Assembly (NCBI GenBank): GCA_900772095.1 | Contig: CAAGQJ010000031.1 | Coordinates: 14,479-78,478, forward strand | DNA from: Bacilli bacterium | GTDB lineage: Bacteria > Bacillota_I > Bacilli_A > RF39 > UBA660 | Direction: 5' to 3' | DNA length: 64,000 bases | Shown here: in pieces, positions 1,367 through 61,715 of the stretch | Position numbering within the stretch: the first letter of the stretch is position 1 | How the letters are laid out: every line of letters begins with the position of its first letter | The notes under the pieces: generated by a model | Database searches by the model: none | What the model saw: only the letters and a program-made list of their open reading frames with translations | What the model was told of the DNA's origin: nothing | Made by a program: the position numbers and the translations under genes

Positions 1367-1505
1367 TACTACACACCTCAAATTTAATACTTGCTAATAA
1401 ATTATAACATATTTTCTTTATCTATGTAAAATAATTAAGTAAAGTTTACATATTAAAACATTGTATAAAATTTTAATATTTTGTATAATGATGGTGGTGG
1501 TTGTT

Positions 1506-4337
1506 ATGAAAAAAAGATATATATATTCATTTTTAATACCTATTGCTATAGTTTTAATATCATTTTTAATATTAGGTATGTATCCATTTAAAGATAGGAG
1601 TATTATTTTAATTGATTCTAATACTCAGTATGTTGATTTTATTATATATTTTAGGAGTATTCTTTTGGGATTAAATAATTTTAAGTATACTTTTAGTAGT
1701 ACTTTAGGACAAAATTTTATACCACTTTTGGGTTATTATTTAATGAGTCCTTTGAATTTGTTATCTATATTTTTTAAACCTTCTAATATGAAGTTATTTA
1801 TGACTATTATTATATTAATAAAAATAGGTTTATGTGGTTTAACTATGGAAGTATATTTAAGTAAAACATATAAAAAAGTAAATATTTTGTTTTCTATTTG
1901 TTATGCTTTAATGATGTATAATATAGTTTATATGTATCATTTGATGTGGTTGGATTCTATTATTTTGTTTCCGCTTGTGATACTTGGAATAGATAATATT
2001 TTTAATAAAAAAAGTCCATTGTTATATATTGTATCTTTATCTTTATCAATAATATTTAATTATTATATTGGATTTATAATATGTATATCTTCAGTAATTT
2101 ATTTTGTATATAAGTATTTTTTAAATAGGAATAGTATTAATAAGTTTAAAGTATTTTTAGAGTATATGATATCTTCAGTTTTAGGTGGCATGATTTCTAT
2201 GTTTATATTACTTCCTTCATTACTTGGTTTGGAGGGAGGAAAGGCAACACTTTCATTATTTAATTTAACTTTTGATATAAATATATCGATATTTAAAGTT
2301 ATTGCTAAAATGTTTACAGCATCAACTGGGGCATATGAAACATGGCATGGAGGCCCAATGATAGGATGTTCTATGTTGGTATTGGTGTTAGTTATATTAT
2401 ATTTTTTAAATAATAAAGTAAATAAAAAAGAAAAGTTGTTTGATGGGTTATTAGTTTTAGTATTTGTACTTTCTTTTGTATTTAAAGATTTTGATACTTT
2501 ATTTCATGGTTTTAATACTCCAAATTGTTTTGATTTTAGGCATGCTTTTGTACTTGTTTTCTTTCTTATTAATATTGCTATAAAATCATATATAAATTTA
2601 GATAATAAGAATTATAAGAAGGGTTTATTTATTTTATTTATTGTTAGTTTATTAGTGTATTTATGTCATTTTAGGTTTAATGTTTCTACTTATAATTTGA
2701 CTATTTTAATTAGTTTATTTCTTGGAGTAGTATATATTGTTTTATTATCGAAGAATAAAAAGTTTATATTTTATGTTTTACTTATAGATTTATTGTTAAA
2801 TACTGTATCTGGTATTTTAACTGATACTATGGCAGATAAGCAGTTTAATTCTTCTTTTACAAAGTATGTAGAAGAAGTAAGTGAAGTAGTAAGTTCTATA
2901 GAGGATAATTCTTTTTATAGGATGGAAAAAACTTTTGATAGGGAAACTAATAAGAGTTTTTTAGCTATTAATGATTCAATGATATTTAATTATAATGGTA
3001 TAAGTCATTTTGATTCTACTAGTCATGAGGATGTAGAAGTATTAATGGAACAACTTGGTATGAGAAGGTTACTTACAAGGGCTTATTATAATGAAAAAGG
3101 TAGTACTTATTTTGTTGATGCAATGCTTGGAATAAAATATGTTTTATCTAATGATATTTATAAAAATTATAAATTTATAAATAAAGTAAATGATATAAGC
3201 ATATATGAAAATCCTTATTATTTACCGCTTAGTTATGTTATAAGTAGTGATGATATTGTATTAACTAAGAATCCTTTTGTTAATCAAAATAATATTGCTA
3301 AGAGTTTTACTTCTTTATCTTTAGATATATATAATAAAGCAAATTATAATTATGTTGATAATGAATATGTAGTTAATATAACTAGTACAGATGAATTATA
3401 TTTTTATGCTGAACTTTATAATAGTTTAGATACTAATTATGGTAATGCTAAAATATATGTTAATGATAATTATTTATGTGATTATTTTACTAAGTATGAT
3501 AGTGGTGTTATATCTTTAGGTAAATATAATATAGGGGATATAGTTAGGATAAGAATAGATTTTGAAAATGAAATAGAGTATGGTGATATTGATATTTATT
3601 ATGAAGATATGGATGTATTAGAAAAGCATCTTAGTATTTTAAGGGAAAGTGATTTGGAAGTAGTTAGAAAGAGTTCATCAAATATAGTTATTAAGGGTGA
3701 TTTTAAGGATAATTCTAAAGTGTTTATTACAATTCCTTATGATAAGGGGTTTAGTGTTAAAGTAGATGGTAAGAGTGTTTCTTTTGATAATTCTATATCT
3801 TTGATGAGTGTTGATGTTCCTAGTGGTGAACACGTAATAGAGCTTGATTTTACTCCTAGGGGTTTGAAAATTGGTGTATATCTTAGTATTTTATCAGTAA
3901 TATTTACTATTGTTTATTTAGTTTTAAGGGAAAAATTATGGAATTTGTATTTAAAGTATCAAGAGTTATGTAATTATTGTATAGTTGGAGCATTAACTAC
4001 TTTAGTTAGTTTAGTATCATATTTTATACTTTCGAGAATATTTGATATTAGTAATAATTTTTATTTTATATTATCTAATACGATTTCATGGATATTATCT
4101 GTGGCGTTTGCATATATTACAAATAAAAAATATGTATTTAATTCTGATGCTAAGGGGATAAAAGAGGTTATTAAGTTTGTATCTTCTAGAATTGCTACAT
4201 ATTTAATAGATTTGTTTTTGATGTTTATTTTTGTAAAGGTTATTTTAATTAATAATGATATTTCGAAATTAATTGTTCAAGTTGTAGTTTTTGTTTTAAA
4301 TTATATATTTAGTAAATTACTTGTATTTAAAAAATAG
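1506..4337 (+). CDS. YfhO-family GT-C glycosyltransferase fused to a C-terminal GtrA-like module
   Basis: ORF 1461-4337. The likely start is ATG 1506 (MKKRYIYSF, GGTGGTGG upstream). It has many TM helices and a large extracytoplasmic region, as in YfhO proteins. The last ~130 aa are GtrA-like. Confidence 0.7.
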   Translation: MKKRYIYSFLIPIAIVLISFLILGMYPFKDRSIILIDSNTQYVDFIIYFRSILLGLNNFKYTFSSTLGQNFIPLLGYYLMSPLNLLSIFFKPSNMKLFMTIIILIKIGLCGLTMEVYLSKTYKKVNILFSICYALMMYNIVYMYHLMWLDSIILFPLVILGIDNIFNKKSPLLYIVSLSLSIIFNYYIGFIICISSVIYFVYKYFLNRNSINKFKVFLEYMISSVLGGMISMFILLPSLLGLEGGKATLSLFNLTFDINISIFKVIAKMFTASTGAYETWHGGPMIGCSMLVLVLVILYFLNNKVNKKEKLFDGLLVLVFVLSFVFKDFDTLFHGFNTPNCFDFRHAFVLVFFLINIAIKSYINLDNKNYKKGLFILFIVSLLVYLCHFRFNVSTYNLTILISLFLGVVYIVLLSKNKKFIFYVLLIDLLLNTVSGILTDTMADKQFNSSFTKYVEEVSEVVSSIEDNSFYRMEKTFDRETNKSFLAINDSMIFNYNGISHFDSTSHEDVEVLMEQLGMRRLLTRAYYNEKGSTYFVDAMLGIKYVLSNDIYKNYKFINKVNDISIYENPYYLPLSYVISSDDIVLTKNPFVNQNNIAKSFTSLSLDIYNKANYNYVDNEYVVNITSTDELYFYAELYNSLDTNYGNAKIYVNDNYLCDYFTKYDSGVISLGKYNIGDIVRIRIDFENEIEYGDIDIYYEDMDVLEKHLSILRESDLEVVRKSSSNIVIKGDFKDNSKVFITIPYDKGFSVKVDGKSVSFDNSISLMSVDVPSGEHVIELDFTPRGLKIGVYLSILSVIFTIVYLVLREKLWNLYLKYQELCNYCIVGALTTLVSLVSYFILSRIFDISNNFYFILSNTISWILSVAFAYITNKKYVFNSDAKGIKEVIKFVSSRIATYLIDLFLMFIFVKVILINNDISKLIVQVVVFVLNYIFSKLLVFKK
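3945..4334 (+). other. GtrA-like four-helix module in frame with YfhO
   Basis: YCIVGALTTLVSLVSYF..NTISWILSVAFAYITNKKYVFNS..SRIATYLIDLFLMFIFV..FVLNYIFSKLLVFKK. No stop codon separates it from the YfhO part. Confidence 0.6.
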
Positions 4338-4343
4338 CTTGCG

Positions 4344-5279
4344 CTATTTTTTTTCTATATTTGTTTCTTTTATAATGTAAATTGGTCTTTTCTTTGTTTC
4401 TAAGTAGGCTTTTGCTAGATATTCTCCCATAATGCCTAAACAAAATAATTGAACGCCACTTACAAAGAAGATAATGCATGCTAGGCTTGGCCAACCATTT
4501 ACTGGGTCTCCGAAGCATAGTGTTTTGATTATAATTACTATTATCATTATAAAGGCAATTAAACAAAATATTATACCGATAAGTGCTGCGATAGTAAGTG
4601 GGGTAGTAGTGAATGAAACAATTCCTTCAATTGCGTAAATAAATAGTTTCCAAAATGACCATTTTGTTGTTCCAGCGACACGATTTATGTTTTCATATTC
4701 TAACCATTTTGTTTTATAACCGACAAAACTAAATAATCCTTTTGAATAACGATTATATTCTTTAAGTTCAAGTATTGAATTTACCATTTGTCTAGTCATT
4801 AATCTAAAATCTCTAGCGCCATCAACCATTTCAACTTTTGACATTTTATTAATTATTTTATAAAACATTCTTGCAAAGAAACTTCTAATAGGGGGCTCTC
4901 CTTTGCGTGTTACTCTTCTAGTGCCGACGCAGTCAAAACCTTCTTCTTTAATTAATCTAATCATTTCAGGAATAAGAGCAGGTGGGTCTTGTAAATCAGC
5001 ATCCATAATTGTAATATAATCACCGCTTGATAGTTCAAGACCTGCTAGCATTGCAGATTCTTTTCCAAAGTTTCTAGATAAATTAATATATTTAATATTT
5101 TTATCTTTTTTACTTAAATCTTTTATAATTTCTATAGTTTTATCTTTTGAGCCATCGTTTACAAAAATGATTTCAAAATTATATTTCATTTCTTTAATAA
5201 TTTTATTTATTTCATTATAGAAATATGGTATTGCTTCTTCTTCATTATAACATGGTACAATAATACTTATTTTTTCCAT
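4344..5279 (-). CDS. GT2 polyprenyl-phosphate glycosyltransferase (CsbB/GtrB-like)
   Basis: ISIIVPCYNEEEAI, FVNDGSKD, DADLQDPP, and two C-terminal TM helices. The start is moved to ATG 5279 (GGAGG at 5285-5289). Confidence 0.8.
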   Translation of the reverse strand: MEKISIIVPCYNEEEAIPYFYNEINKIIKEMKYNFEIIFVNDGSKDKTIEIIKDLSKKDKNIKYINLSRNFGKESAMLAGLELSSGDYITIMDADLQDPPALIPEMIRLIKEEGFDCVGTRRVTRKGEPPIRSFFARMFYKIINKMSKVEMVDGARDFRLMTRQMVNSILELKEYNRYSKGLFSFVGYKTKWLEYENINRVAGTTKWSFWKLFIYAIEGIVSFTTTPLTIAALIGIIFCLIAFIMIIVIIIKTLCFGDPVNGWPSLACIIFFVSGVQLFCLGIMGEYLAKAYLETKKRPIYIIKETNIEKK

Positions 5280-5334
5280 TTTTACCTCCATTAACTACCT
5301 ATATTATATAGTTTATATAATTAAAATTCAAGTA

Positions 5335-46724: not shown

Positions 46725-48068
46725 TTAGAGATTATCTAAAGCAACAGAGTCTTTTATTTTTTTGGGTTTCTTTTGTTTGTCTTTTTTATTTTTATTTTTA
46801 GTTTTTACTGAGCATGCTACTATGGCAAGTATTCCTAAGAATAATCCGGCAGAGCCAATTATTAAAATGAATTTTTTGTATTGATTTATTTCATTTTCAT
46901 ATACTTCTTTTATTTCATCTGTATATTTTTGAACAGTGTTTTCATCTTCTTCATATGTATACCAATTAGTAAGTGATGTTTCTAAGTTGGTTCCATATAT
47001 TAGTGTATATTTTGAGTCTTTATTAATTTTGTATCCGGTAACTTCAATGTCTCCTATTTTGATAGTGGTTTTAATATATTTATCAATATTTTTATTTGGT
47101 TCTAGAATTAATAATTTAATATTATTAAAAGTTATTTCACTATATGGTTTGTATGTATTAGTATCTTTATCGTATATATATAGATTGATGTTTCCATCAC
47201 TATCTTTAAGACCTATTAGTGTAAGATTTGTAGAGCTATTATAGAATGCTGGTATTTCTTCATTATCAATTGTAATTTTAGTACTTTGATAATTTGATGG
47301 TTTAGTTAAGATGCTTTCTCTTTTTACAACAGTATAATTTTTATCATTTATTTTTACATTAATAGGGTTGTTATCTTTAACTGTAACAATAATAGTATAA
47401 GTTTTTTTTGTTCCTTTTTCGCTAGTGACAACAATATTAATTTTATTTTCTCCTTCTGAAACTTTTATTTTTCCGGTACCATTTATTTTTGCTTTTGAAT
47501 CTTCTAAAGTAGCGTTTACAGTGATTTCTTCAACTTTTTCTTCTACTTCTAATTTGTATTCTAGGGTATCTTTATTAAAGTTAGGACTTATTTTGTATCC
47601 GGCAACTTCTAAAGTTTTTAAATTATTGTTAGTAGAGTATGTAATTGGTTTAGTAGTAGTTTCTTCTTTTATTCCAGTAATAGTAACAGGACTAACAGTA
47701 GTTTTCATTTCGTCTTCTCCTGCAAAAGTACGCATTGCGTATGATTTGACAGTAACTTTTGATGACCCAGTATTTAGAACTTTAAATTTATATGTTCTTT
47801 TTAGTTGTTTAGTGCTAGAACTAGGTGCAACATCTAGGACACCAATATCTCCTTCTATGAGTTTTAATTTTGAGCTATCATAACTTATGGTGTATTCACA
47901 AGTACCGATAGCAGTACTACTTTTACAATATACTGTAACTGTAGTAGTATTACCAATTTTAACATTTTTACTTGATGCATATATATCAATTGTACCATTT
48001 GCGGCATTTACTTTAAGAACTGGGAATAAGAGTAGTAAAGTAAGTACTAAATATTTAAGTTTTTTCAT
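46725..48068 (-). CDS. C-terminally membrane-anchored surface protein: cohesin-like module, cadherin-like beta-sandwich and stalk
   Basis: Signal peptide ..VLKVNA|ANG. A cadherin-like module (NNNLKTLEVAGYKISPNFNKDTLEYKLEV..TYTIIVTV). C-terminal TM FILIIGSAGLFLGILAIVACSV plus a Lys-rich tail. Confidence 0.6.
   Translation of the reverse strand: MKKLKYLVLTLLLLFPVLKVNAANGTIDIYASSKNVKIGNTTTVTVYCKSSTAIGTCEYTISYDSSKLKLIEGDIGVLDVAPSSSTKQLKRTYKFKVLNTGSSKVTVKSYAMRTFAGEDEMKTTVSPVTITGIKEETTTKPITYSTNNNLKTLEVAGYKISPNFNKDTLEYKLEVEEKVEEITVNATLEDSKAKINGTGKIKVSEGENKINIVVTSEKGTKKTYTIIVTVKDNNPINVKINDKNYTVVKRESILTKPSNYQSTKITIDNEEIPAFYNSSTNLTLIGLKDSDGNINLYIYDKDTNTYKPYSEITFNNIKLLILEPNKNIDKYIKTTIKIGDIEVTGYKINKDSKYTLIYGTNLETSLTNWYTYEEDENTVQKYTDEIKEVYENEINQYKKFILIIGSAGLFLGILAIVACSVKTKNKNKKDKQKKPKKIKDSVALDNL
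47673..48002 (-). other. cohesin-like module (residues ~23-132)
   Basis: GTIDIYASSKNVKIGNTTTVTVYCKSSTAIGTCEYTISYDSSKLKLIEGD..YKFKVLNTGSSKVTVKS follows the cohesin strand pattern (..G.tv.v.v....i.g..f.l.YD...L...). Confidence 0.45.
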
Positions 48069-48080
48069 CTAATTACCTCC

Positions 48081-50327
48081 TTATTTAATCTTTATATAAC
48101 CGAGTATGTGTTTTTGGACTCTTAATAAATCAAGTGAATTTATTTTATCGTCGTAACTTACATCTGCAGCATCTTTGTATTCATTTTTTAATGTACTGTA
48201 TTTTAGGATATGTTTTTGGACTCTTAATAGGTCTATACTATTTATTTTACCATCTCCATTAACGTCTCCTTTTATGACAATTGTGTAACTTTGTTTATCT
48301 GTGCCACTTACTATAGTAATAATATCACCAGTAGCAAGGTTATCTTCTTTTGAGTTGTTTTTATTATCTGTTATAGTGACTTTTGCGCTTGGATAGGATT
48401 TATTAATTGTATTTTTTATATCTCCAGCAGTGGTAAGTACTGCAATGTTAGTTAAGTATCCATTTGATAGTTTAAAATCCATATTATTTATTATTTCACT
48501 AACTTTTATATCTTTGTCTGTGGTTTTCTTTTTAATTATTGTGACATTATAAGTTTTGGTTGTTCCTACTTCGCTGGTAACAGTAATATTAACGGTTGTT
48601 TCGTCTTTTTCTAGTTTAATATTACCAGTTCCTTTAATAGTTGATTTATTACTTTTTGCAGTTGCTGTAATTATTACTTCTTTGGTATCATCTGTAACAT
48701 AATAATCGTATGTTAAGACGTCACTATCAAAGCCATTTACTAAGGTATTATTTATTTTTAAACTAGATAAGTCGTTGTTTGTATTTCCAACAGGTGGGTG
48801 AGAGGTGTATTCATCTGGGGTATTAGTGTATACAGGAATAGAGAATGTCCATCCTACGTCAAGTAAGTTTGCATTTTGATATGCATAATATATGGATAGG
48901 CTTTCACTAGCTGGTGCGATTATATTTGTCATATATTGATTAGTATATGCAGTTGAAGAGGCAGAATCTTTTGTGTTAAACTTTTGATAATATAAAGTAT
49001 CTTGTCCTCCGCCTACATATCTTTTTGTAATAAATTGTGCACCGTATTTAATAGCTTTTTCTCTTGTGTTCCAAGGTGTTCCATCGTAATTATCTACGAT
49101 ACCTGCTGCTACGGCTAAGCCTCTTGTAACAGCGCTTTTAGTAACACTATCTTGATAGGCACCAATATTATAATAATTGTAGTATCCTTTTAAACTTTTA
49201 CCATTATATGTTAAGTTTGATTTACCACTAACACCGTCATAATTTTCATTTGTTCCTCCTTCTTGTTTAACTCTTGCTGCTAAAAGTACGGGACTAATTT
49301 TATAGGTTTCAGCGGCTTCTAGGAAGTATTTTATATAATCTTCATCGCCATTTGCTAAATAGGTTCCACTAAATAAAGTTTCTAATACGCTTCTTGTATG
49401 ATTTTGTTTGTCATATGATTGAAGTAAGAATGCAAAAATATTTTTTTCATTTAAGTAATTTCTAGGGTCAATATAAAATGCAGTCATTGCACTAGAAGCT
49501 GTATACCAGTTAGGATTTTCTTTTAAAGTATTATTTAATCTATATACTGCGTAAGTTGATTGGGTATAGTTTTTACCTGTTTCTTTATCTACTACTGTAT
49601 TAAATTTTTTTGTACTTTTTTCTGCTTTGAAATTCCAATTTGGATGAAGACTATGTAAATAACTTAAATAGGGGATATAACTATCTGGAAAGCCTTCTGC
49701 TTTAAGTTTTTTTGCATATTCAGTATCTGTTTTGGTTATTTTGCTATAATCATCTACTAATCTAGCACATACATATCCAGTTTTATTATTATAATAGGAT
49801 ATTTTATACCAACCAGTTGTGCATGAAGAACTTTTGTTAGTAGGACCAGATAATATTTTAACATCAGTACCTAAGTATATAACTTCAATAGAACTTGCAT
49901 TTATGGAAGCACTTGTTCTTACTGTGGCATAGTTTTCATTAATTCTTGTGGACCAGGATTTTGTTGTATAATAGTTACCATCAGAAGATATTTTATAGTC
50001 ACTATTAATTCCGCCAGTAGCTTCTTCTGTTTCAGTAATTTTTATACAGTTGCTACATACATAATAACCGCTTTTTCCATTATAATAAGCTTCAACCCAT
50101 CCTTTAGAACAGTTACTATCCCCAGTATTATATAGTTTATTGCTTACTAATTGTATGGTTTTTTTATAACTAATGAGAGTTTTATAACTGTAATTAGTAC
50201 CGGGTCCTGTTCTTATATAAACTCCATCTTTATCTGTAACAGTTGCAGTATAACTATTTGCATTAACATCTAATATATAGAAACTAAATATAAAAATGAA
50301 TATTAATAGTTTAATATTTTTTTTCAT
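48081..50327 (-). CDS. secreted peptidoglycan hydrolase: 2x SH3b, GH73 glucosaminidase, cadherin-like module and a type I dockerin
   Basis: Signal peptide ..ILDVNA|NS. SH3b repeats (GVYIRTGPGTNYSYK; GWYKISYYNNKTGYV). GH73-like core (ISPVLLAARVKQEGG, YYNYYNIGAY, GGQDTLYYQKFN). C-terminal dockerin. Confidence 0.7.
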   Translation of the reverse strand: MKKNIKLLIFIFIFSFYILDVNANSYTATVTDKDGVYIRTGPGTNYSYKTLISYKKTIQLVSNKLYNTGDSNCSKGWVEAYYNGKSGYYVCSNCIKITETEEATGGINSDYKISSDGNYYTTKSWSTRINENYATVRTSASINASSIEVIYLGTDVKILSGPTNKSSSCTTGWYKISYYNNKTGYVCARLVDDYSKITKTDTEYAKKLKAEGFPDSYIPYLSYLHSLHPNWNFKAEKSTKKFNTVVDKETGKNYTQSTYAVYRLNNTLKENPNWYTASSAMTAFYIDPRNYLNEKNIFAFLLQSYDKQNHTRSVLETLFSGTYLANGDEDYIKYFLEAAETYKISPVLLAARVKQEGGTNENYDGVSGKSNLTYNGKSLKGYYNYYNIGAYQDSVTKSAVTRGLAVAAGIVDNYDGTPWNTREKAIKYGAQFITKRYVGGGQDTLYYQKFNTKDSASSTAYTNQYMTNIIAPASESLSIYYAYQNANLLDVGWTFSIPVYTNTPDEYTSHPPVGNTNNDLSSLKINNTLVNGFDSDVLTYDYYVTDDTKEVIITATAKSNKSTIKGTGNIKLEKDETTVNITVTSEVGTTKTYNVTIIKKKTTDKDIKVSEIINNMDFKLSNGYLTNIAVLTTAGDIKNTINKSYPSAKVTITDNKNNSKEDNLATGDIITIVSGTDKQSYTIVIKGDVNGDGKINSIDLLRVQKHILKYSTLKNEYKDAADVSYDDKINSLDLLRVQKHILGYIKIK
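48084..48269 (-). other. type I dockerin module (62 aa)
   Basis: Two Ca-binding repeats: GDVNGDGKINSIDLLRVQKHIL and ADVSYDDKINSLDLLRVQKHILG. Confidence 0.75.
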
Positions 50328-50590: not shown

Positions 50591-50614
50591 CCCTTATAAA
50601 ATAAGGGTTTTTTT
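50591..50614 (+). terminator. terminator after tRNA-Cys
   Basis: CCCTTAT / ATAAGGG hairpin plus T7. Confidence 0.7.
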
Positions 50615-50726
50615 ATGTTTTTTAAAAATTGTGTGTGAATTAATATTAGTTTTAATAATATTTAAATATCTTGTTGTAAAATTTTAAATTTATGATATAC
50701 TTTTATTAGAATTGGAGGATTATTTT

Positions 50727-52403
50727 ATGAAAATTAAAAAGATATTATTTACTTTAATATTATTTTTTACATGTTTTTTAAGTGTAAATGCTAAGAATAA
50801 AATATCTAATATTTCTATGTCTATTTATTTAGATAAAGATGGTACGGCATTTATTACTGAAAAATGGGATGTAAAAGGTAGTGATGGTACAGAATGGTAT
50901 AAAGGGTTAGGTAATTTAGGAAATTCAGTACTATCTGATTTTAAAGTTTCAATGGATGGAACTGATTTGACTTATAAAACATGGGATATTAATGAATCAT
51001 TAAGTGAAAAAAAAGGTTATTATGGTATTAATTATAGTAGTAATGGACCTGAATTATGTTTTGGAAAATATGACTATAAGAAACATACTTTTGTATTAAA
51101 TTATAAGTTAACAAATTATATAATTAATACAGAAGATAGTCAAGTTTTATATTGGACTTTAATTGATAGGTTATCAGGTGTTGATTTTGAAAAGTTCGAT
51201 GTAACAGTAACTAGTTATTATTCTTTTCCAGATACATTAGATGTTTGGGGTTATGGTTATAAAGGATATGCTTATGTAAAAGATGGTAAGATAAGTATGT
51301 CTACTGAGGAAAATAGTGATATGAATGATAGTTATGTTGTTTTGCTTGCTAAATTTCCTTTAGAAACATTTGATACAGATAATACAAGTAGTGATTTTTC
51401 AAAGTTTGATGATGTTTATCAAAGGGCTGAAGATGGAACATTTGATTATAATTATGATGATAGCAGTCCAAATATTTTATCAATAATTAAATTTATACTT
51501 TATGCAGGAGTTATTGGTTTTATTTTTGGAATGTCAATTTATTTTGCGGTATCAGGTGGATATGGTTATAAAGATAATAAAACTATTTCTAAGAAGAATA
51601 CACCATTTTTTAGAGATATACCTTGTAATAAAGATATTTATTATGCAAATACTTTAATTAAACTAAATAAATTTGGATATAAAGAGACAAATATTTTGGG
51701 AGCAATATTATTAAAATGGGTAAGAGAAGATAAGATAGGTTTTTCTTCTACTGTTAAAGGTATTTTGAAGAAAGAAGAAGGTATAATAGATTTAACAAAA
51801 TCACCATCATTTGATAATGAAAAGGAAGAAAAATTATTTAACATGATGTATGAGGCTAGTAAAGATGGATATTTAGAGAAGAAAGAATTTGAGAAATGGG
51901 CAAGAACTCATTATGACCGTTTTCTTAGTTTGTTTAATTCGATAGAAAGTGCAAAAGAAAATGAATTAAGAAAAAGTGGGGAAATTTATCGAAGAAAAAA
52001 TAAACAAGAATGTAAGAAGAGAAATGTATTAAGTGATAAGATTTATGAGGATAGTAAACAATTATTTGGATTAAAACTTTATTTAAATGAGTTTACTTCA
52101 ATGAATACTAAAGAAGTAATGGAAGTAAAATTATGGGATGAGTATTTAATGTTTGCTTATTTATTTGGAATTGCTGACAAGGTTGCGAAACAACTTAAAA
52201 ATATGTATCCTGAATTAATAGAACAATCTGATTTTGATTATGGAACATTTATTTTATTAAACAATATATCTAATAGTACTGTTTATGCTGCAACTAGTGC
52301 AAGGGCAGCAGCAGAAAATTATTCTTCAGGTGGAGGCGGGTTCTCATCTGGCGGAGGTGGCGGTGGTTCCTTCGGCGGTGGAGGCGGAGGCGGAAGCCGT
52401 TAA
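50727..52403 (+). CDS. DUF2207-family membrane protein with a poly-Gly C-terminal tail
   Basis: ATG 50727 after GGAGG. Signal peptide, extracytoplasmic domain, TM segments, and tail SSGGGGFSSGGGGGGSFGGGGGGGSR typical of DUF2207. Confidence 0.7.
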   Translation: MKIKKILFTLILFFTCFLSVNAKNKISNISMSIYLDKDGTAFITEKWDVKGSDGTEWYKGLGNLGNSVLSDFKVSMDGTDLTYKTWDINESLSEKKGYYGINYSSNGPELCFGKYDYKKHTFVLNYKLTNYIINTEDSQVLYWTLIDRLSGVDFEKFDVTVTSYYSFPDTLDVWGYGYKGYAYVKDGKISMSTEENSDMNDSYVVLLAKFPLETFDTDNTSSDFSKFDDVYQRAEDGTFDYNYDDSSPNILSIIKFILYAGVIGFIFGMSIYFAVSGGYGYKDNKTISKKNTPFFRDIPCNKDIYYANTLIKLNKFGYKETNILGAILLKWVREDKIGFSSTVKGILKKEEGIIDLTKSPSFDNEKEEKLFNMMYEASKDGYLEKKEFEKWARTHYDRFLSLFNSIESAKENELRKSGEIYRRKNKQECKKRNVLSDKIYEDSKQLFGLKLYLNEFTSMNTKEVMEVKLWDEYLMFAYLFGIADKVAKQLKNMYPELIEQSDFDYGTFILLNNISNSTVYAATSARAAAENYSSGGGGFSSGGGGGGSFGGGGGGGSR

Positions 52404-59582: not shown

Positions 59583-59620
59583 ACTATTGGTTAAAATATT
59601 TAAAAATATTAAATTTTTTT

Positions 59621-59650
59621 GAAAAAGATTAAGGTCTTTTTCTTTTTTTT
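59621..59650 (+). terminator. hairpin terminator after rseP
   Basis: GAAAAAG / CTTTTTC plus T8. Confidence 0.6.
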
Positions 59651-59678
59651 ATCAATTATATATATAGGAGGTGAGAAA

Positions 59679-61715
59679 ATGACAAAAAATTACAAGTATA
59701 TTTTACAAGAAAATGATAACGATTGTGGTGTAGCATCTTTTATGACAATACTTTTACACTTTGGAATAAAGCCGTCACGTGAAGCTATTATAAGTGATTT
59801 AAAAGTATCAAAAGATGGAATATCGGCGTATGACTTAGTAGTTGAAGGTAAAAAGTTTGGTTTAAATGGATATGGGATAAATACTAATATAGATAAATTA
59901 CAAAGTAAACTGCTTCCTGTAATAGCGCATACTATAAAAAATAAAAACTTCTATCATTATATAGTTATATTAGAAAACAATATTAAAACTAAAACGTTAA
60001 CAATAATGGATCCAAGTTTTGGTATTGAGAATATAACATATGAAAAATTTAATGAAATGTCTACAAATATTTTTATTGTTTTTGAAAATAAAGATATGAT
60101 AAAACAAAAGGATAAAAGATTTAAAACTGTATTAACTGAGCTTTTTAAATCTAATAAAAAATTGGTATTTGAGGCATTCCTACTTTCATTTTTCTTTATT
60201 GCTTTTTCTATTATGTATAATTACTATTTGAAAATTATTATAACTATGAATAGTATTAAGACTGCTGTTATAGTATTTATTATTTTTATTAGTATTTCGT
60301 TTTTTAAAAATCTTATTGATTATATTAAAAATAAAACCATATTAAAACTTAATTTAACTATTGATAAAAAAATAACTAAAAAAGTAATTAGTCATATTCT
60401 TCATCTTCCTTATAAATATTATAAATCAAAGAAGGTAGGAGAACTTGTTACAATTATTAATGATATTGAAAACTTTAAAGAAATTATAACTAAAGTGTTT
60501 GTTTTGTGTTTAATAGATGTTTTTTTAATATTTTTAGTACTTATTTATATTGCCTATTATAATTTTATTTATGTAATAGTACTTCTCATATTTATTTATA
60601 TCTATATGTTAGTGGTATTTAAATATCAATATGTATTTAATGATATATTTGTTAAAGTTAAAAGAAAGAAAATATATTATAATTCAATTTTGGTTAATTC
60701 TTTAAATTCATTTGATAGTATTAAAAATTTAAATATTGAAAGTAAGGTTGTAAAGGAAGTTACAAATAATTATAAAGATGTTTTAAATTATAATAAACAG
60801 TATTCAAAAACATATTATAAGTTTGCTACTAAAAGTAATTTATTTATTGAAGTTTTCTACTTATTATTTTCTCTACTAACGGTTTTAATTTTACAAAGAA
60901 CTAATAGTGATTTATCAAATATTATTTTATTAAGTAACTTTTATAATATAGTGTTTGGTTTTACAACTGATATTGGTGAATGTTTAGTAATGTATAAAAT
61001 ATATCAAACTTCTATTGATAAGGTATTAGATATTATGGATATAAATGAAGAAAAATTTTATCAAACAAGAATGAATAAGATAGATAAAATAGAATTTAAA
61101 AATGTATCATATAAAGTTTTTGATAAAAGTATTTTAAATGATGTAAATTTAATTATAAATAAAGGTGATCATTTATTTATTAAAGGGAAATCTGGTATAG
61201 GTAAAAGTACTATGATGAAATTATTATTAAAATATGACGAAGTAACAAACGGGGATATTTTAATAGATGGTATCGATATAAAAACATTAGATTTAAGTTT
61301 TATTAGAAAAAGTATAACTTATGTAAGTCAAAATGAAAATATATTAAGTAATACATTAGATAATGACTTAAAATTAATAAGTAATAATAAAAGAAACAAA
61401 GAACTTGCTTGTAAAACAGTTTTATTAAATGAAATGTTTAATGATGGAAAAATAGATTATAATTTATATTTTGAAGAAAATGGTTCTAATATAAGTGGTG
61501 GTCAAAGAAAAAAGATAATTCTTGCGAGGGCTTTAATGAAAAAATCAAAAGTACTTATTTTGGATGAAGTTTTTAATGAGATTGATGTAACAGAAGAAAG
61601 AAGAATACTTAATAATATTTTGAACAATTACCCTTATCTTACTGTGATACTTATATCACATAGGTATAATAATATAGACTTGTTTAACAAAGTATTTGAA
61701 TTAAAGGAGGAATAA
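59679..61715 (+). CDS. bacteriocin/peptide ABC exporter with an N-terminal C39 peptidase domain
   Basis: ATG 59679 after AGGAGGTG. C39 context: QENDNDCGVAS (Cys), NFYHYIVIL (His), IMDPSFG (Asp). ABC motifs: Walker A GKSGIGKST, signature ISGGQRKK, Walker B VLILDE, H-loop SHR. Confidence 0.8.
   Translation: MTKNYKYILQENDNDCGVASFMTILLHFGIKPSREAIISDLKVSKDGISAYDLVVEGKKFGLNGYGINTNIDKLQSKLLPVIAHTIKNKNFYHYIVILENNIKTKTLTIMDPSFGIENITYEKFNEMSTNIFIVFENKDMIKQKDKRFKTVLTELFKSNKKLVFEAFLLSFFFIAFSIMYNYYLKIIITMNSIKTAVIVFIIFISISFFKNLIDYIKNKTILKLNLTIDKKITKKVISHILHLPYKYYKSKKVGELVTIINDIENFKEIITKVFVLCLIDVFLIFLVLIYIAYYNFIYVIVLLIFIYIYMLVVFKYQYVFNDIFVKVKRKKIYYNSILVNSLNSFDSIKNLNIESKVVKEVTNNYKDVLNYNKQYSKTYYKFATKSNLFIEVFYLLFSLLTVLILQRTNSDLSNIILLSNFYNIVFGFTTDIGECLVMYKIYQTSIDKVLDIMDINEEKFYQTRMNKIDKIEFKNVSYKVFDKSILNDVNLIINKGDHLFIKGKSGIGKSTMMKLLLKYDEVTNGDILIDGIDIKTLDLSFIRKSITYVSQNENILSNTLDNDLKLISNNKRNKELACKTVLLNEMFNDGKIDYNLYFEENGSNISGGQRKKIILARALMKKSKVLILDEVFNEIDVTEERRILNNILNNYPYLTVILISHRYNNIDLFNKVFELKEE

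Follow-up and report, generated by a model that had tools for sequence, protein, structure and literature searches.

A two-gene module in the 64-kb window analyzed here (the whole stretch of DNA, 64,000 nucleotides long) probably tethers a peptidoglycan N-acetylglucosaminidase to the surface of the cell that makes it, through a type I cohesin-dockerin interaction that would be non-covalent and Ca-dependent; we place the probability of this reading at about 0.72. Both open reading frames were found at the coordinates and on the strand given by the initial annotation (748 and 447 amino acids, Table 1), and the pair described there was confirmed in its open reading frames, junction, hydrolase domains and anchor architecture. 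As had been reported, the anchor gene starts 12 nt downstream of the hydrolase gene behind a GGAGG: the junction reads TAA-GGAGG-TAATTAG-ATG, with the GGAGG 7 nt ahead of the anchor ATG. Judging from this arrangement, the two genes form a bicistron that is likely translationally coupled.

Table 1. Features of the hydrolase-anchor gene pair, with positions in the window.
Feature	Positions	Strand	Basis
Gene 1, secreted GH73 peptidoglycan hydrolase with C-terminal dockerin, 748 aa	48081..50327	minus	ORF, Pfam, AF2
Hydrolase signal peptide, residues 1-23, ...LDVNA/N cut	50259..50327	minus	Sequence; N-terminal helix 2-15, low pLDDT
Hydrolase two SH3b repeats, residues ~24-200	49728..50258	minus	Pfam SH3_3, Foldseek
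Hydrolase GH73 N-acetylglucosaminidase core, residues ~201-515, E356 and QYMTN 464-468	48783..49727	minus	Profile, Foldseek
Hydrolase cadherin-like beta-sandwich, residues 516-605	48513..48782	minus	Pfam PF12733 6.8e-8; model strands 520-600
Hydrolase module X, small alpha/beta, residues 606-683	48279..48512	minus	AF2 secondary structure, pLDDT ~86-91
Hydrolase type I dockerin, residues 684-748	48084..48278	minus	Pfam, Foldseek, conserved Ca ligands
Intergenic spacer, 12 nt, with GGAGG at 48076-48080	48069..48080	minus	Sequence
Gene 2, type I membrane protein with N-terminal cohesin (anchor), 447 aa	46725..48068	minus	ORF, AF2
Anchor signal peptide, residues 1-22, ...LKVNA/A cut	48003..48068	minus	Sequence; low-pLDDT N-terminal helix
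Anchor divergent cohesin module, residues 23-135	47664..48002	minus	Ortholog Pfam, family profile, fold; covariation with dockerin
Anchor cadherin-like beta-sandwich, residues 141-232	47373..47648	minus	Pfam PF12733, 1.5e-11
Anchor beta-sandwich stalk and juxtamembrane helix, residues 233-399	46872..47372	minus	AF2 strands 237-381, helix from 384, pLDDT ~90
Anchor transmembrane helix, residues 400-421	46806..46871	minus	22 hydrophobic residues
Anchor Lys-rich cytoplasmic tail, residues 422-447	46728..46805	minus	Sequence KTKNKNKKDKQKKPKKIK...; pLDDT <50 from residue 426

The hydrolase (AlphaFold2 model with pLDDT 88.8 and pTM 0.69) carries the signal peptide, two SH3b repeats, GH73 core, cadherin-like module and dockerin named in the initial annotation, which had left out module X. 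Pfam recovered the SH3_3 (twice, 7e-12), Cadherin-like (residues 520-599, 7e-8) and Dockerin_1 families expected there, and Foldseek matched the SH3b region to the clostridial SH3b domains 2kt8, 2krs and 9ovi (TM 0.70-0.79). Glucosaminidase (PF01832) gave no Pfam match in this protein, and the core was assigned by other means: phmmer matched AtlE (4pi7, 4e-6) and SagB (6u0o, 8e-6), while a profile of the hydrolase family searched against the PDB retrieved Atl (6fxo, 2e-15), SagB (3e-15) and Acp (5wqw, 4e-13), E356 lining up with the Glu of LLETG. Using Foldseek, GH73 structures of this set superposed on the core with TM 0.60-0.75, SagB being the best structural match (E 1e-13). No variation was seen at E356, Q464 or N468 across 55 orthologs, and conservation at Y465 and T467 reaches 90% or more. 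The core is firmly a GH73 domain despite the PF01832 miss, and it would be expected to act as an N-acetylglucosaminidase. Module X, which we add here, has no Pfam match and is joined to the dockerin without a linker.

The Dockerin_1 match (residues 686-742) scores 61.6 bits (cutoff 22.9; 8e-17), and the module superposes on 1ohz_B with TM 0.94, an rmsd of 0.7 A and 44% identity (Foldseek). Its two F-hand Ca loops are accompanied by a pair of near-identical helices; the two Ca-binding repeats that had been described hold up, both loop patterns with their D/N/S residues being kept in 77 orthologs. The repeats change in lockstep: they share identical residues at the recognition positions 9, 10, 11 and 15 with an identity of 0.69-0.83 where 0.30-0.45 is expected, a value reached in 0 of 2000 shuffles. 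Such concerted selection on the recognition positions implies a protein partner with drifting specificity, and the symmetry of the repeats suggests a dual binding mode.

For the anchor (AlphaFold2 model, pLDDT 86.3), the cohesin assignment proposed for the N-terminus was retained on the strength of orthologs, family profile and fold, although the window's own protein misses Pfam Cohesin and has Cadherin-like (residues 160-229, 1.5e-11) as its sole Pfam match. The five sequences that it matches in the PDB, weakly (E 0.05-0.24), are all cohesins, and a profile built from 53 family members matches PDB cohesins at 1e-4 to 8e-4. Orthologs that are 41-56% identical pass the Pfam Cohesin gathering score on the colinear N-terminal module (29.5-33.2 versus 24.1 bits). 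Residues 24-133 were modeled as an all-beta module of 9-10 strands (pLDDT >90), which matches cohesins with TM 0.5-0.64, including 6kgc_A (TM 0.64, rmsd 2.7 A), 3ul4_A (TM 0.58) and 1qzn (TM 0.53), each with probability 1.00; 6kgc, 3ul4 and 5lxv, all among the fold matches, were solved in complex with dockerins. The rest of the layout was also borne out by Pfam, sequence and model. The cadherin-like module is ~40% identical to that of the hydrolase, the stalk (residues 233-399) has no Pfam match, and the hydrophobic stretch FILIIGSAGLFLGILAIVACSV (residues 400-421) lies inside the model helix 384-424, beyond which the 26-residue Lys-rich tail falls in the low-confidence end of the model. The sequence ahead of the transmembrane helix holds no LPXTG motif, and Pfam detected no SLH domains in the anchor.

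To assess conservation we used 80 species-level genome loci from RF39-like gut MAGs. A GH73 gene lies directly upstream of the anchor in 80/80 loci and carries a C-terminal dockerin in 79/80, in agreement with the co-occurrence that the initial annotation had looked to; the intergenic gap has a median of ~10 nt and falls between 8 and 16 nt at the majority of the 79 orthologous loci where it could be measured. The genes flanking the pair, by contrast, are not conserved. More widely, we found >1100 homologs of the hydrolase, most carrying Dockerin_1, and >846 of the anchor; for the anchor, a collection with one genome per species yielded at least 455 confirmed matches. The pair is conserved in hundreds of related species. 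A dockerin-only search returned fragments alone. Each locus has one dockerin and one cohesin, and the 64-kb window contains no further copy of either. In indirect support of binding, the covariation of the dockerin is specific to the cohesin module: with six other modules controlled for, the partial Mantel r is 0.30 (p = 0.001, a test whose significance can be inflated across related species), and all controls containing just one of the two modules give 0.14 or less. Residue-level mutual information, computed on 77 pairs only, showed no dockerin-cohesin enrichment (0.86x).

In the mechanism that we propose, both proteins would be exported via their Sec signal peptides. The C-terminal helix would keep the anchor in the membrane, with the Lys-rich tail pointing into the cytoplasm and a rod of three beta-sandwich domains presenting a single cohesin outward. 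The C-terminal dockerin of the hydrolase would plug into this cohesin, its two symmetric helices probably permitting either of two orientations, and the GH73 core and SH3b repeats would then act on the wall at a fixed reach from the membrane. Housekeeping wall remodeling or daughter-cell separation is the most likely role of the pair.

The same complex could serve another purpose if the surface-held GH73 attacks foreign peptidoglycan, either as a harvester providing muropeptides and amino sugars to a wall-building auxotroph (a 'peptidoglycan-osome', by analogy with the cellulosome or amylosome) or as a weapon for contact killing of neighboring bacteria. Cohesin-dockerin systems classically hold polysaccharide-degrading enzymes beside the cell, and rumen dockerin-lysozymes have been proposed to act in microbial competition (Bensoussan et al., PMC6487960). 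We nevertheless consider this use unlikely, as the pair is a universal, apparently single-copy, vertically inherited core module in 80/80 species, which is more typical of housekeeping autolysins, as self-acting autolysins (Atl, AtlE, Acp) have SH3b plus GH73 as their standard domain layout, and as no amino-sugar uptake or catabolic genes are linked to the pair within the window. An origin as a prophage or mobile-element lysis cassette, with an endolysin and an accessory protein in place of a chromosomal housekeeping module, is highly improbable. GH73 and SH3b are found in phage endolysins, the phiSM101 endolysin SH3b is among the Foldseek matches, and the flanks differ between species (RarA and DUF2207 each occur in 1/80 loci); against this stand the Sec signal peptides on both proteins, the presence of the pair in all 80 species representatives with divergence tracking across modules, neighboring genes that are rarA, thiF-like, DUF2207 and nifS-like and include no phage or mobile-element genes, and a GC content (0.26-0.30 versus 0.20-0.31 across the window) without anomaly.

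The N-terminal module of the anchor might instead be a purely structural, cohesin-shaped beta-sandwich with no affinity for the dockerin, the genes being coupled for some other reason: the anchor would then be a regulator or scaffold touching the hydrolase elsewhere, for example through module X and the stalk, and the dockerin would have another partner, either some other cohesin or a component of the wall. The Pfam miss in the window's protein fits such an arrangement, as do the covariation of module X with the anchor stalk (partial r 0.44, p 0.002), which exceeds that of dockerin and cohesin and is unaccounted for by a simple tip-to-tail tether, and one locus (L021) in which the anchor keeps its cohesin beside a GH73 without a dockerin; this locus may mean that the cohesin has other partners or that its lineage is in transition. 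We regard a non-binding module as quite improbable, given that orthologs pass Pfam Cohesin on the same module, that its fold matches include dockerin-complexed cohesins, that dockerin and cohesin covary specifically, also once the six other modules are controlled for, that the dockerin recognition positions are under concerted selection, and that no second cohesin was found in the window or within ~7 kb on either side in the 80 loci.

Among known systems, SagB is a GH73 glucosaminidase that acts at the membrane with a membrane-protein partner and cuts glycan strands near the membrane; its structure with SpdC from S. aureus (PDB 6u0o), termed the 'peptidoglycan release complex', was crystallized in lipidic cubic phase. 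In the proposed arrangement, the pair would resemble SagB-SpdC as a membrane-held GH73 partnered with a membrane protein. SagB, however, has its own N-terminal transmembrane helix and SpdC is polytopic and CAAX-protease-like, whereas the tether here is a separate single-pass protein, putatively joined by cohesin and dockerin, and the partners share no homology. Modular autolysins (S. aureus Atl/AtlE, C. perfringens Acp, S. pneumoniae LytB) likewise combine a GH73 core bearing the conserved catalytic Glu with SH3b-type wall-binding repeats, but are retained solely through wall polymers, bound by SH3b, GW, choline-binding or LysM-type modules, and are not known to use a dockerin or a dedicated protein receptor, unlike the pair as predicted here.

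The docking modules themselves resemble those of clostridial cellulosomes. The dockerin is of the canonical type I, 42-44% identical (TM 0.92-0.94) to the Xyn10B dockerin of the C. thermocellum Xyn10B-CipA cohesin 2 pair (PDB 1OHZ/2CCL), with which it shares the paired F-hand Ca loops and the symmetry of the helices, and the anchor module shares the cohesin fold of C. acetobutylicum CohA2-Doc0917 (6KGC; TM up to 0.64 to CohA2). In contrast to these cellulosomes, the cargo is a peptidoglycan hydrolase and not a plant-polysaccharide enzyme, a single cohesin and a single dockerin replace the multi-cohesin scaffoldin, the cohesin of this species is too divergent for Pfam, the partners are encoded as a tight bicistron, and the host belongs to a small-genome, non-cellulolytic gut Bacilli lineage. 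Anchoring scaffoldins include SdbA, OlpB and Orf2p of C. thermocellum, with SLH domains, and ScaE of Ruminococcus flavefaciens, with a sortase signal. In these, as is proposed for the anchor here, a surface-fixed cohesin captures a dockerin-bearing partner; the anchor differs in its C-terminal transmembrane helix and Lys-rich tail, without SLH or LPXTG, and in the three-domain beta-sandwich stalk between cohesin and membrane.

Docking pairs are also used outside plant-fiber degradation, as they would be here: C. perfringens toxin complexes use cohesin and dockerin modules, and non-cellulosomal modules were reportedly surveyed by Peer et al. in 2009. Such reports catalogue modules and describe no conserved two-gene unit of hydrolase and membrane receptor and no lineage-wide distribution. 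In the non-cellulolytic gut Firmicute Ruminococcus bicirculans, the only cohesin and the only dockerin are said to be 'associated with a GH73 enzyme' (Wegmann et al. 2014, Environ Microbiol 16:2879, via PMC4611034); that species belongs to the Clostridia and not to RF39-like Bacilli, and the association, as relayed there, is known from a mention in the genome paper alone. Among the accounts cited here, this mention comes closest to having described the idea before. Dockerins on putative lysozymes were also found in rumen metagenomes, in a survey with Tenericutes among its phyla (PMC6487960). The initial annotation had held that a dedicated autolysin-plus-anchor operon was not a characterized system; with these precedents the GH73-docking idea is not wholly new, and no such system is known to have been experimentally characterized.

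The host of the pair is an uncultured low-GC gut bacterium. RF39 bacteria are mostly walled. Most PBPs and lyt/cwl hydrolases were lost in their ancestor, and they are predicted to lack standard WTA/LTA synthesis (PMC10868615). Envelope genes in the window (YfhO-GtrA, GT2 and a flippase) are consistent with a walled organism.

We located both minus-strand open reading frames where the initial annotation had placed them, the hydrolase gene lying upstream and the gene of its proposed membrane anchor directly behind it. The 12-nt gap and the GGAGG 5' of the anchor were likewise recovered at the junction, which reads TAA-GGAGG-TAATTAG-ATG, with 7 nt between the Shine-Dalgarno sequence and the ATG of the anchor. 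The two genes share one reading frame, with two stops in the 15 nt between them (TAA-GGA-GGT-AAT-TAG), and the spacer measured 8-16 nt in most of the 80 related loci that we fetched (median about 10); the common frame and short spacer, together with a 4-nt overlap in three of these loci, suggest translational coupling. Scanning the window (26% GC, strongly positive GC skew) for promoters returned fewer promoter-like sites than shuffled sequences, and a terminator scan retrieved nothing convincing 3' of the anchor gene, so that operon boundaries were judged from gene spacing only. Few genes lie on the minus strand of the window, the pair and rarA (3' of the pair, with a promoter-like site of its own) among them. 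The divergent DUF2207 gene adjoins the pair in only 1 of the 80 loci and is thus probably unrelated to it.

Pfam models were run against the hydrolase, yielding two SH3_3 matches, in line with the two SH3b-like repeats described before, and a Cadherin-like match (residues 520-599) for the module of that name. The GH73 core stood by homology, fold and motifs and not by Pfam: the Glucosaminidase model (PF01832) gave no match at E <= 1 and is absent from the precomputed Pfam lists of orthologs too, so the assignment needed other evidence. A phmmer search with the single hydrolase sequence matched the GH73 structures AtlE (4e-6) and SagB (8e-6) as well as Atl, and a family profile built from 55 sequences reached E-values of 2.3e-15 (Atl), 2.6e-15 (SagB), 3.5e-13 (Acp from C. 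perfringens) and 7e-12 (AtlE). Using Foldseek on an AlphaFold2 model of the protein (pLDDT 88.8, pTM 0.69), we retrieved the GH73 alpha/beta lysozyme-like fold, with GH73 structures at TM 0.60-0.75 (6u0o_B, E-value 1e-13; 4pia, TM 0.74; 5wqw, TM 0.65; 6fxo, TM 0.63). Both the catalytic Glu and the Y-x-T-[DN] motif of GH73 were found: E356, aligned with the Glu of Atl 'LLETG', is invariant among orthologs, and in QYMTN (464-468), aligned with Atl 'HQYATD', Q464 and N468 are invariant and Y465 and T467 at least 90% conserved. Homology, predicted fold and catalytic motif therefore point to a GH73 core, predicted to act as an endo-beta-N-acetylglucosaminidase on peptidoglycan. A small alpha/beta module without a family match, hereafter module X, runs straight into the dockerin.

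The C-terminal type I dockerin with both Ca-binding repeats was upheld by Pfam, by its ligands and by its fold. Dockerin_1 (PF00404) matched residues 686-742 over its full length (1-57 of 57) with 61.6 bits against a cutoff of 22.9 (E-value 8e-17). We treated the repeats as two F-hands of about 22 residues each, with Ca ligands at positions 1, 3, 5 and 12, and checked position 9 separately: the ligands D688/N690/D692/D699 and D722/S724/D726/D733 stay D, N or S in 77 orthologs, and position 9 (N696, N730) is variable, mostly T or N. The model has the three helices of a dockerin (697-707, 715-721 and 731-741), and the last 65 residues superposed on the C. thermocellum Xyn10B dockerin 1ohz_B at TM 0.94 (rmsd 0.7 A, identity 44%) and, by Foldseek, on 2ccl_B at TM 0.92. 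In 69-83% of 72 distinct orthologous dockerins, repeat 1 carries the same residue as repeat 2 at positions 9, 10, 11 and 15, where 30-45% was expected and none of 2,000 shuffles reached the observed value; the helix pairs change jointly between orthologs, with signatures such as SI, IL, AL, SA, SQ, IV and IY. Matching residues in both repeats are a known signature of dual-binding-mode type I dockerins, and repeats changing in lockstep imply a partner protein with a specificity that shifts from one species to the next. For other cargo proteins, a dockerin-only homolog search was run and 28 short fragment candidates were scored.

For the anchor, a Pfam scan (E <= 1) matched Cadherin-like alone, in agreement with the module described after the cohesin, and not PF00963. 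The cohesin proposed at the N-terminus (residues 23-135) was thus left open by Pfam on the window protein itself, and the assignment was carried by orthologs, the family profile and the predicted fold. All five PDB matches of the single anchor sequence at E <= 10 are cohesins, at weak E-values (0.05-0.24), and a profile of 53 anchor homologs matched the cohesins 3l8q (1.1e-4), 1g1k (5.4e-4) and 2vn5 (7.6e-4). Six of these 53 homologs matched Pfam Cohesin on their own (E <= 0.01); on re-scanning, the orthologs P0005, P0027, P0094 and P0120 scored 29.5-33.2 bits (gathering cutoff 24.1) over residues about 30-119, colinear with the module of the window protein, to which P0005 is 56% identical across the cohesin module. 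In the AlphaFold2 model of the anchor (pLDDT 86.3), the tip was all-beta, with 9-10 strands over residues 24-133 at pLDDT > 90, and by strand count and superposition agreed with the jelly roll anticipated for it. Foldseek matched it to cohesins with probability 1.00 for all five structures (6kgc_A, TM 0.64, rmsd 2.7 A; 6kgf_C, 0.62; 3ul4_A, 0.58; the type II cohesin 1qzn, 0.53; 5lxv_A, 0.50), and as a single domain its best superpositions were on cohesins from dockerin complexes (6kgc_A, 3ul4_A, 5lxv_A). These four lines of evidence, from sequence and from the model, converge on a predicted divergent cohesin at residues 23-135.

The remainder of the anchor gene encodes the cadherin-like sandwich, two more beta-sandwiches and a long helix, inside which we found the expected TM segment (22 hydrophobic residues, 400-421), followed by the 26-residue Lys-rich end. 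An LPXTG-type motif is absent from the sequence before residues 400-421 and SLH domains had no Pfam match, which, with the C-terminal TM helix, argues for a type I membrane protein whose far end is the cohesin. An exhaustive profile search with the anchor family was dominated in its top matches by giant proteins with 10-50 cadherin-like repeats and therefore says little on the limits of the family. One protein of 1655 aa (P0305) matches the signal peptide, cohesin-like and cadherin-like region of the anchor in its first 263 residues and holds more cadherin-like repeats beyond, for a total of 16 matched stretches; possibly it is a giant surface protein with the same cohesin type.

Features of the gene pair and of the rest of the window, with window positions
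Feature	Position	Strand	Details
YfhO + GtrA-like fusion	1461-4337		958 aa; YfhO match 1e-155
GT2 glycosyltransferase	4344-5291		neighbour of the fusion, divergently oriented
Promoter-like site of rarA	46703-46675	minus	
Anchor gene	46725-48068	minus	447 aa
Anchor stalk	46872-47372	minus	residues 233-399
Anchor Cys pair	47900-48000	minus	C48, C57 (CKSS...GTCEY), in cohesin
Hydrolase gene	48081-50327	minus	748 aa
Dockerin Ser at position 10	48126-48239	minus	S697, S731, one in each repeat
Module X	48279-48512	minus	hydrolase residues 606-683
Terminator-like hairpin	50591-50607	both	CCCTTATAAAATAAGGG; between upstream region of the pair and DUF2207 gene
DUF2207 membrane protein	50712-52403		divergent; long Gly-rich C-terminal tail (GGGGFSSGGGGGGSFGGGGGGGSR)
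ABC transporter	59619-61715		N-terminal C39 peptidase domain

The anchor family comprised more than 846 clusters at 90% identity, and a confirmed relative is encoded by at least 455 stretches of a collection in which each species has a single genome. Nearly all hosts are MAGs labelled uncultured Bacilli, Tenericutes, Mycoplasma sp., Clostridium sp. CAG:524 or CAG:762, labels that we take to stand for the RF39-like group. As foreseen, the pair is kept in relatives: a GH73 gene lies directly upstream of the anchor, on the same strand, in 80/80 loci, and ends in a dockerin in 79 of them. The flanking genes of the window (rarA, DUF2207, thiF-like and nifS-like) adjoin the pair in at most 1 of the 80 loci, and persistence of the pair between unshared flanks argues that selection holds just these two genes together. 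Family-specific HMMs detected one dockerin and one cohesin per locus across the 80 loci, and none elsewhere in the 64-kb window. In the single exception (L021:712-4681), the GH73 protein (886 aa) lacks the cadherin-like, X and dockerin modules, stopping directly after its catalytic core, and carries additional SH3b repeats, of which one interrupts that core; the downstream anchor retains its cohesin-like module. Nine loci labelled 'uncultured Muribaculaceae bacterium' or 'Candidatus Ruminococcus primaciens' (L018, L023, L037, L045, L067, L068, L073, L074 and L079) carry the pair on contigs of 25-31% GC; as all 80 loci lie at 23-33% GC, these MAG labels are probably wrong and reflect binning artefacts.

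Distance matrices of eight modules were then compared across 77 species. For the dockerin, the highest correlation was with the anchor's cohesin module (r 0.61), above the modules of its own protein, and a partial Mantel test controlling for the six other modules gave r = 0.30 (p = 0.001), or 0.31 with recognition positions only, against -0.14 to 0.14 for other hydrolase modules with the cohesin and 0.05 for the dockerin with other anchor modules. Mantel tests are liberal on related taxa, and we therefore count this covariation as support short of proof. Mutual information between residues of the two proteins was dominated by phylogeny and showed no enrichment of dockerin-cohesin pairs (0.86x); with as few as 77 pairs, we count it neither for nor against the pairing. 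The Cys pair in the cohesin was the top covarying partner of the Ser at position 10 in both dockerin repeats; it may mark a clade or determine specificity, and 77 pairs are too few to separate it from phylogeny. Module X and the anchor stalk covaried more than dockerin and cohesin did (raw r 0.68; partial Mantel r 0.44, p 0.002; 77 species) and supplied 3 of the top 25 inter-protein mutual information pairs. Behind this could be a second contact, a wall-polymer ligand common to both, or an artefact of rates or alignment; a simple tip-to-tail tether leaves it unexplained.

We favor a tether in which the cohesin of the anchor holds the GH73 hydrolase through its dockerin, and give this reading a probability of about 0.7; cohesin-dockerin binding, its Ca dependence and the enzymatic specificity are what we infer for the pair. 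Both proteins would be exported through Sec, the anchor would remain in the membrane with its rod of beta-sandwiches projecting the cohesin, and the hydrolase would dock via its C-terminal dockerin, with its SH3b repeats and GH73 core working on as much of the wall as the tether lets them reach. A genome survey predicts a wall in most RF39 species, an ancestor that had shed the majority of its PBPs and lyt/cwl hydrolases, and no standard teichoic-acid synthesis (PMC10868615). A protein receptor may thus take the place of polymer-guided positioning of the remaining autolysin. The rival reading keeps the same complex and gives it another role, that of harvesting or attacking foreign peptidoglycan, a role supported by the muropeptide scavenging suggested in that survey (PMC10868615). 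Two more elaborate forms of the complex, which we regard even jointly as unlikely, are a rigid two-contact 'molecular ruler' and a peptidoglycan-harvesting surface machine. In a ruler, the dockerin would sit in the tip cohesin and module X against the membrane-proximal stalk (partial r 0.44), which would keep the active site of GH73 at a set distance from the membrane; in a harvesting machine, the displayed enzyme would gather foreign muropeptides for a lineage whose own synthesis of wall precursors is incomplete (PMC10868615).

Cohesins and dockerins are known to pair outside cellulosomes too. A survey with Tenericutes among its phyla reported dockerins attached to putative lysozymes in the rumen (PMC6487960), and the most pertinent precedent, likened here by citation alone, is a Ruminococcus bicirculans cohesin/dockerin linked to a GH73 enzyme, for which Ze et al. 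2015 cite Wegmann 2014 in one sentence (PMC4611034). Our literature search found no paper mentioning both 'dockerin' and 'RF39'. Whereas a cellulosome joins a scaffoldin with several cohesins to several dockerin-bearing enzymes, the window and the 80 loci each hold one cohesin, in the anchor, and one dockerin. Unlike sortase- or SLH-anchored surface proteins, the anchor has neither LPXTG nor SLH, and typical sorting signals have a tail shorter than its 26 residues. The closest structural relative of the hydrolase core is SagB, solved with SpdC in a 'peptidoglycan release complex' (6u0o), to which the likeness is limited to function and catalytic domain: SagB has its own TM helix, whereas the hydrolase starts with a signal-peptide-like N-terminus (VNA/N cleavage motif) and no hydrophobic stretch follows in its sequence, and SpdC is polytopic and CAAX-like, whereas the anchor is single-pass with beta-sandwich domains. 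Since SagB acts next to the membrane, a membrane-referenced glucosaminidase is a plausible analogy. We believe that the recognition of the divergent cohesin, the TM anchoring mode, the tight bicistronic layout, the lineage-wide conservation and the coevolution evidence are new. In public databases the anchors go by no more than 'cadherin-like beta sandwich domain-containing', and the hydrolases by no more than 'dockerin type I domain-containing', annotations that the present reading corrects.

Autolysin placement is usually put down to wall-polymer binding (LysM, SH3b, choline, teichoic-acid guidance) or to a covalent membrane anchor. A dedicated protein receptor with the plug and socket of the cellulosome would be a different and genetically simple solution, and the pair, with at least 455 genome matches, seems to be standard and not exceptional in a large group of uncultured bacteria with reduced genomes from human and animal guts. 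Should the ruler or harvesting form be true, an entire order of abundant, uncultured gut bacteria would rely on a protein in place of teichoic acid to guide its autolysins. As small soluble modules, both partners can be produced in E. coli, and the pair offers a directly testable handle on division of RF39-like organisms, as well as a ready natural set of species-specific cohesin-dockerin pairs for work on specificity and for synthetic biology.

A prophage or lysis-cassette reading of the pair was rejected. Elsewhere in the window, the YfhO-GtrA fusion and its GT2 neighbour resemble machinery for the glycosylation of envelope glycopolymers; standard teichoic-acid synthesis is predicted absent from this lineage. 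The ABC transporter with a C39 peptidase domain is of the bacteriocin or double-glycine peptide exporter type.
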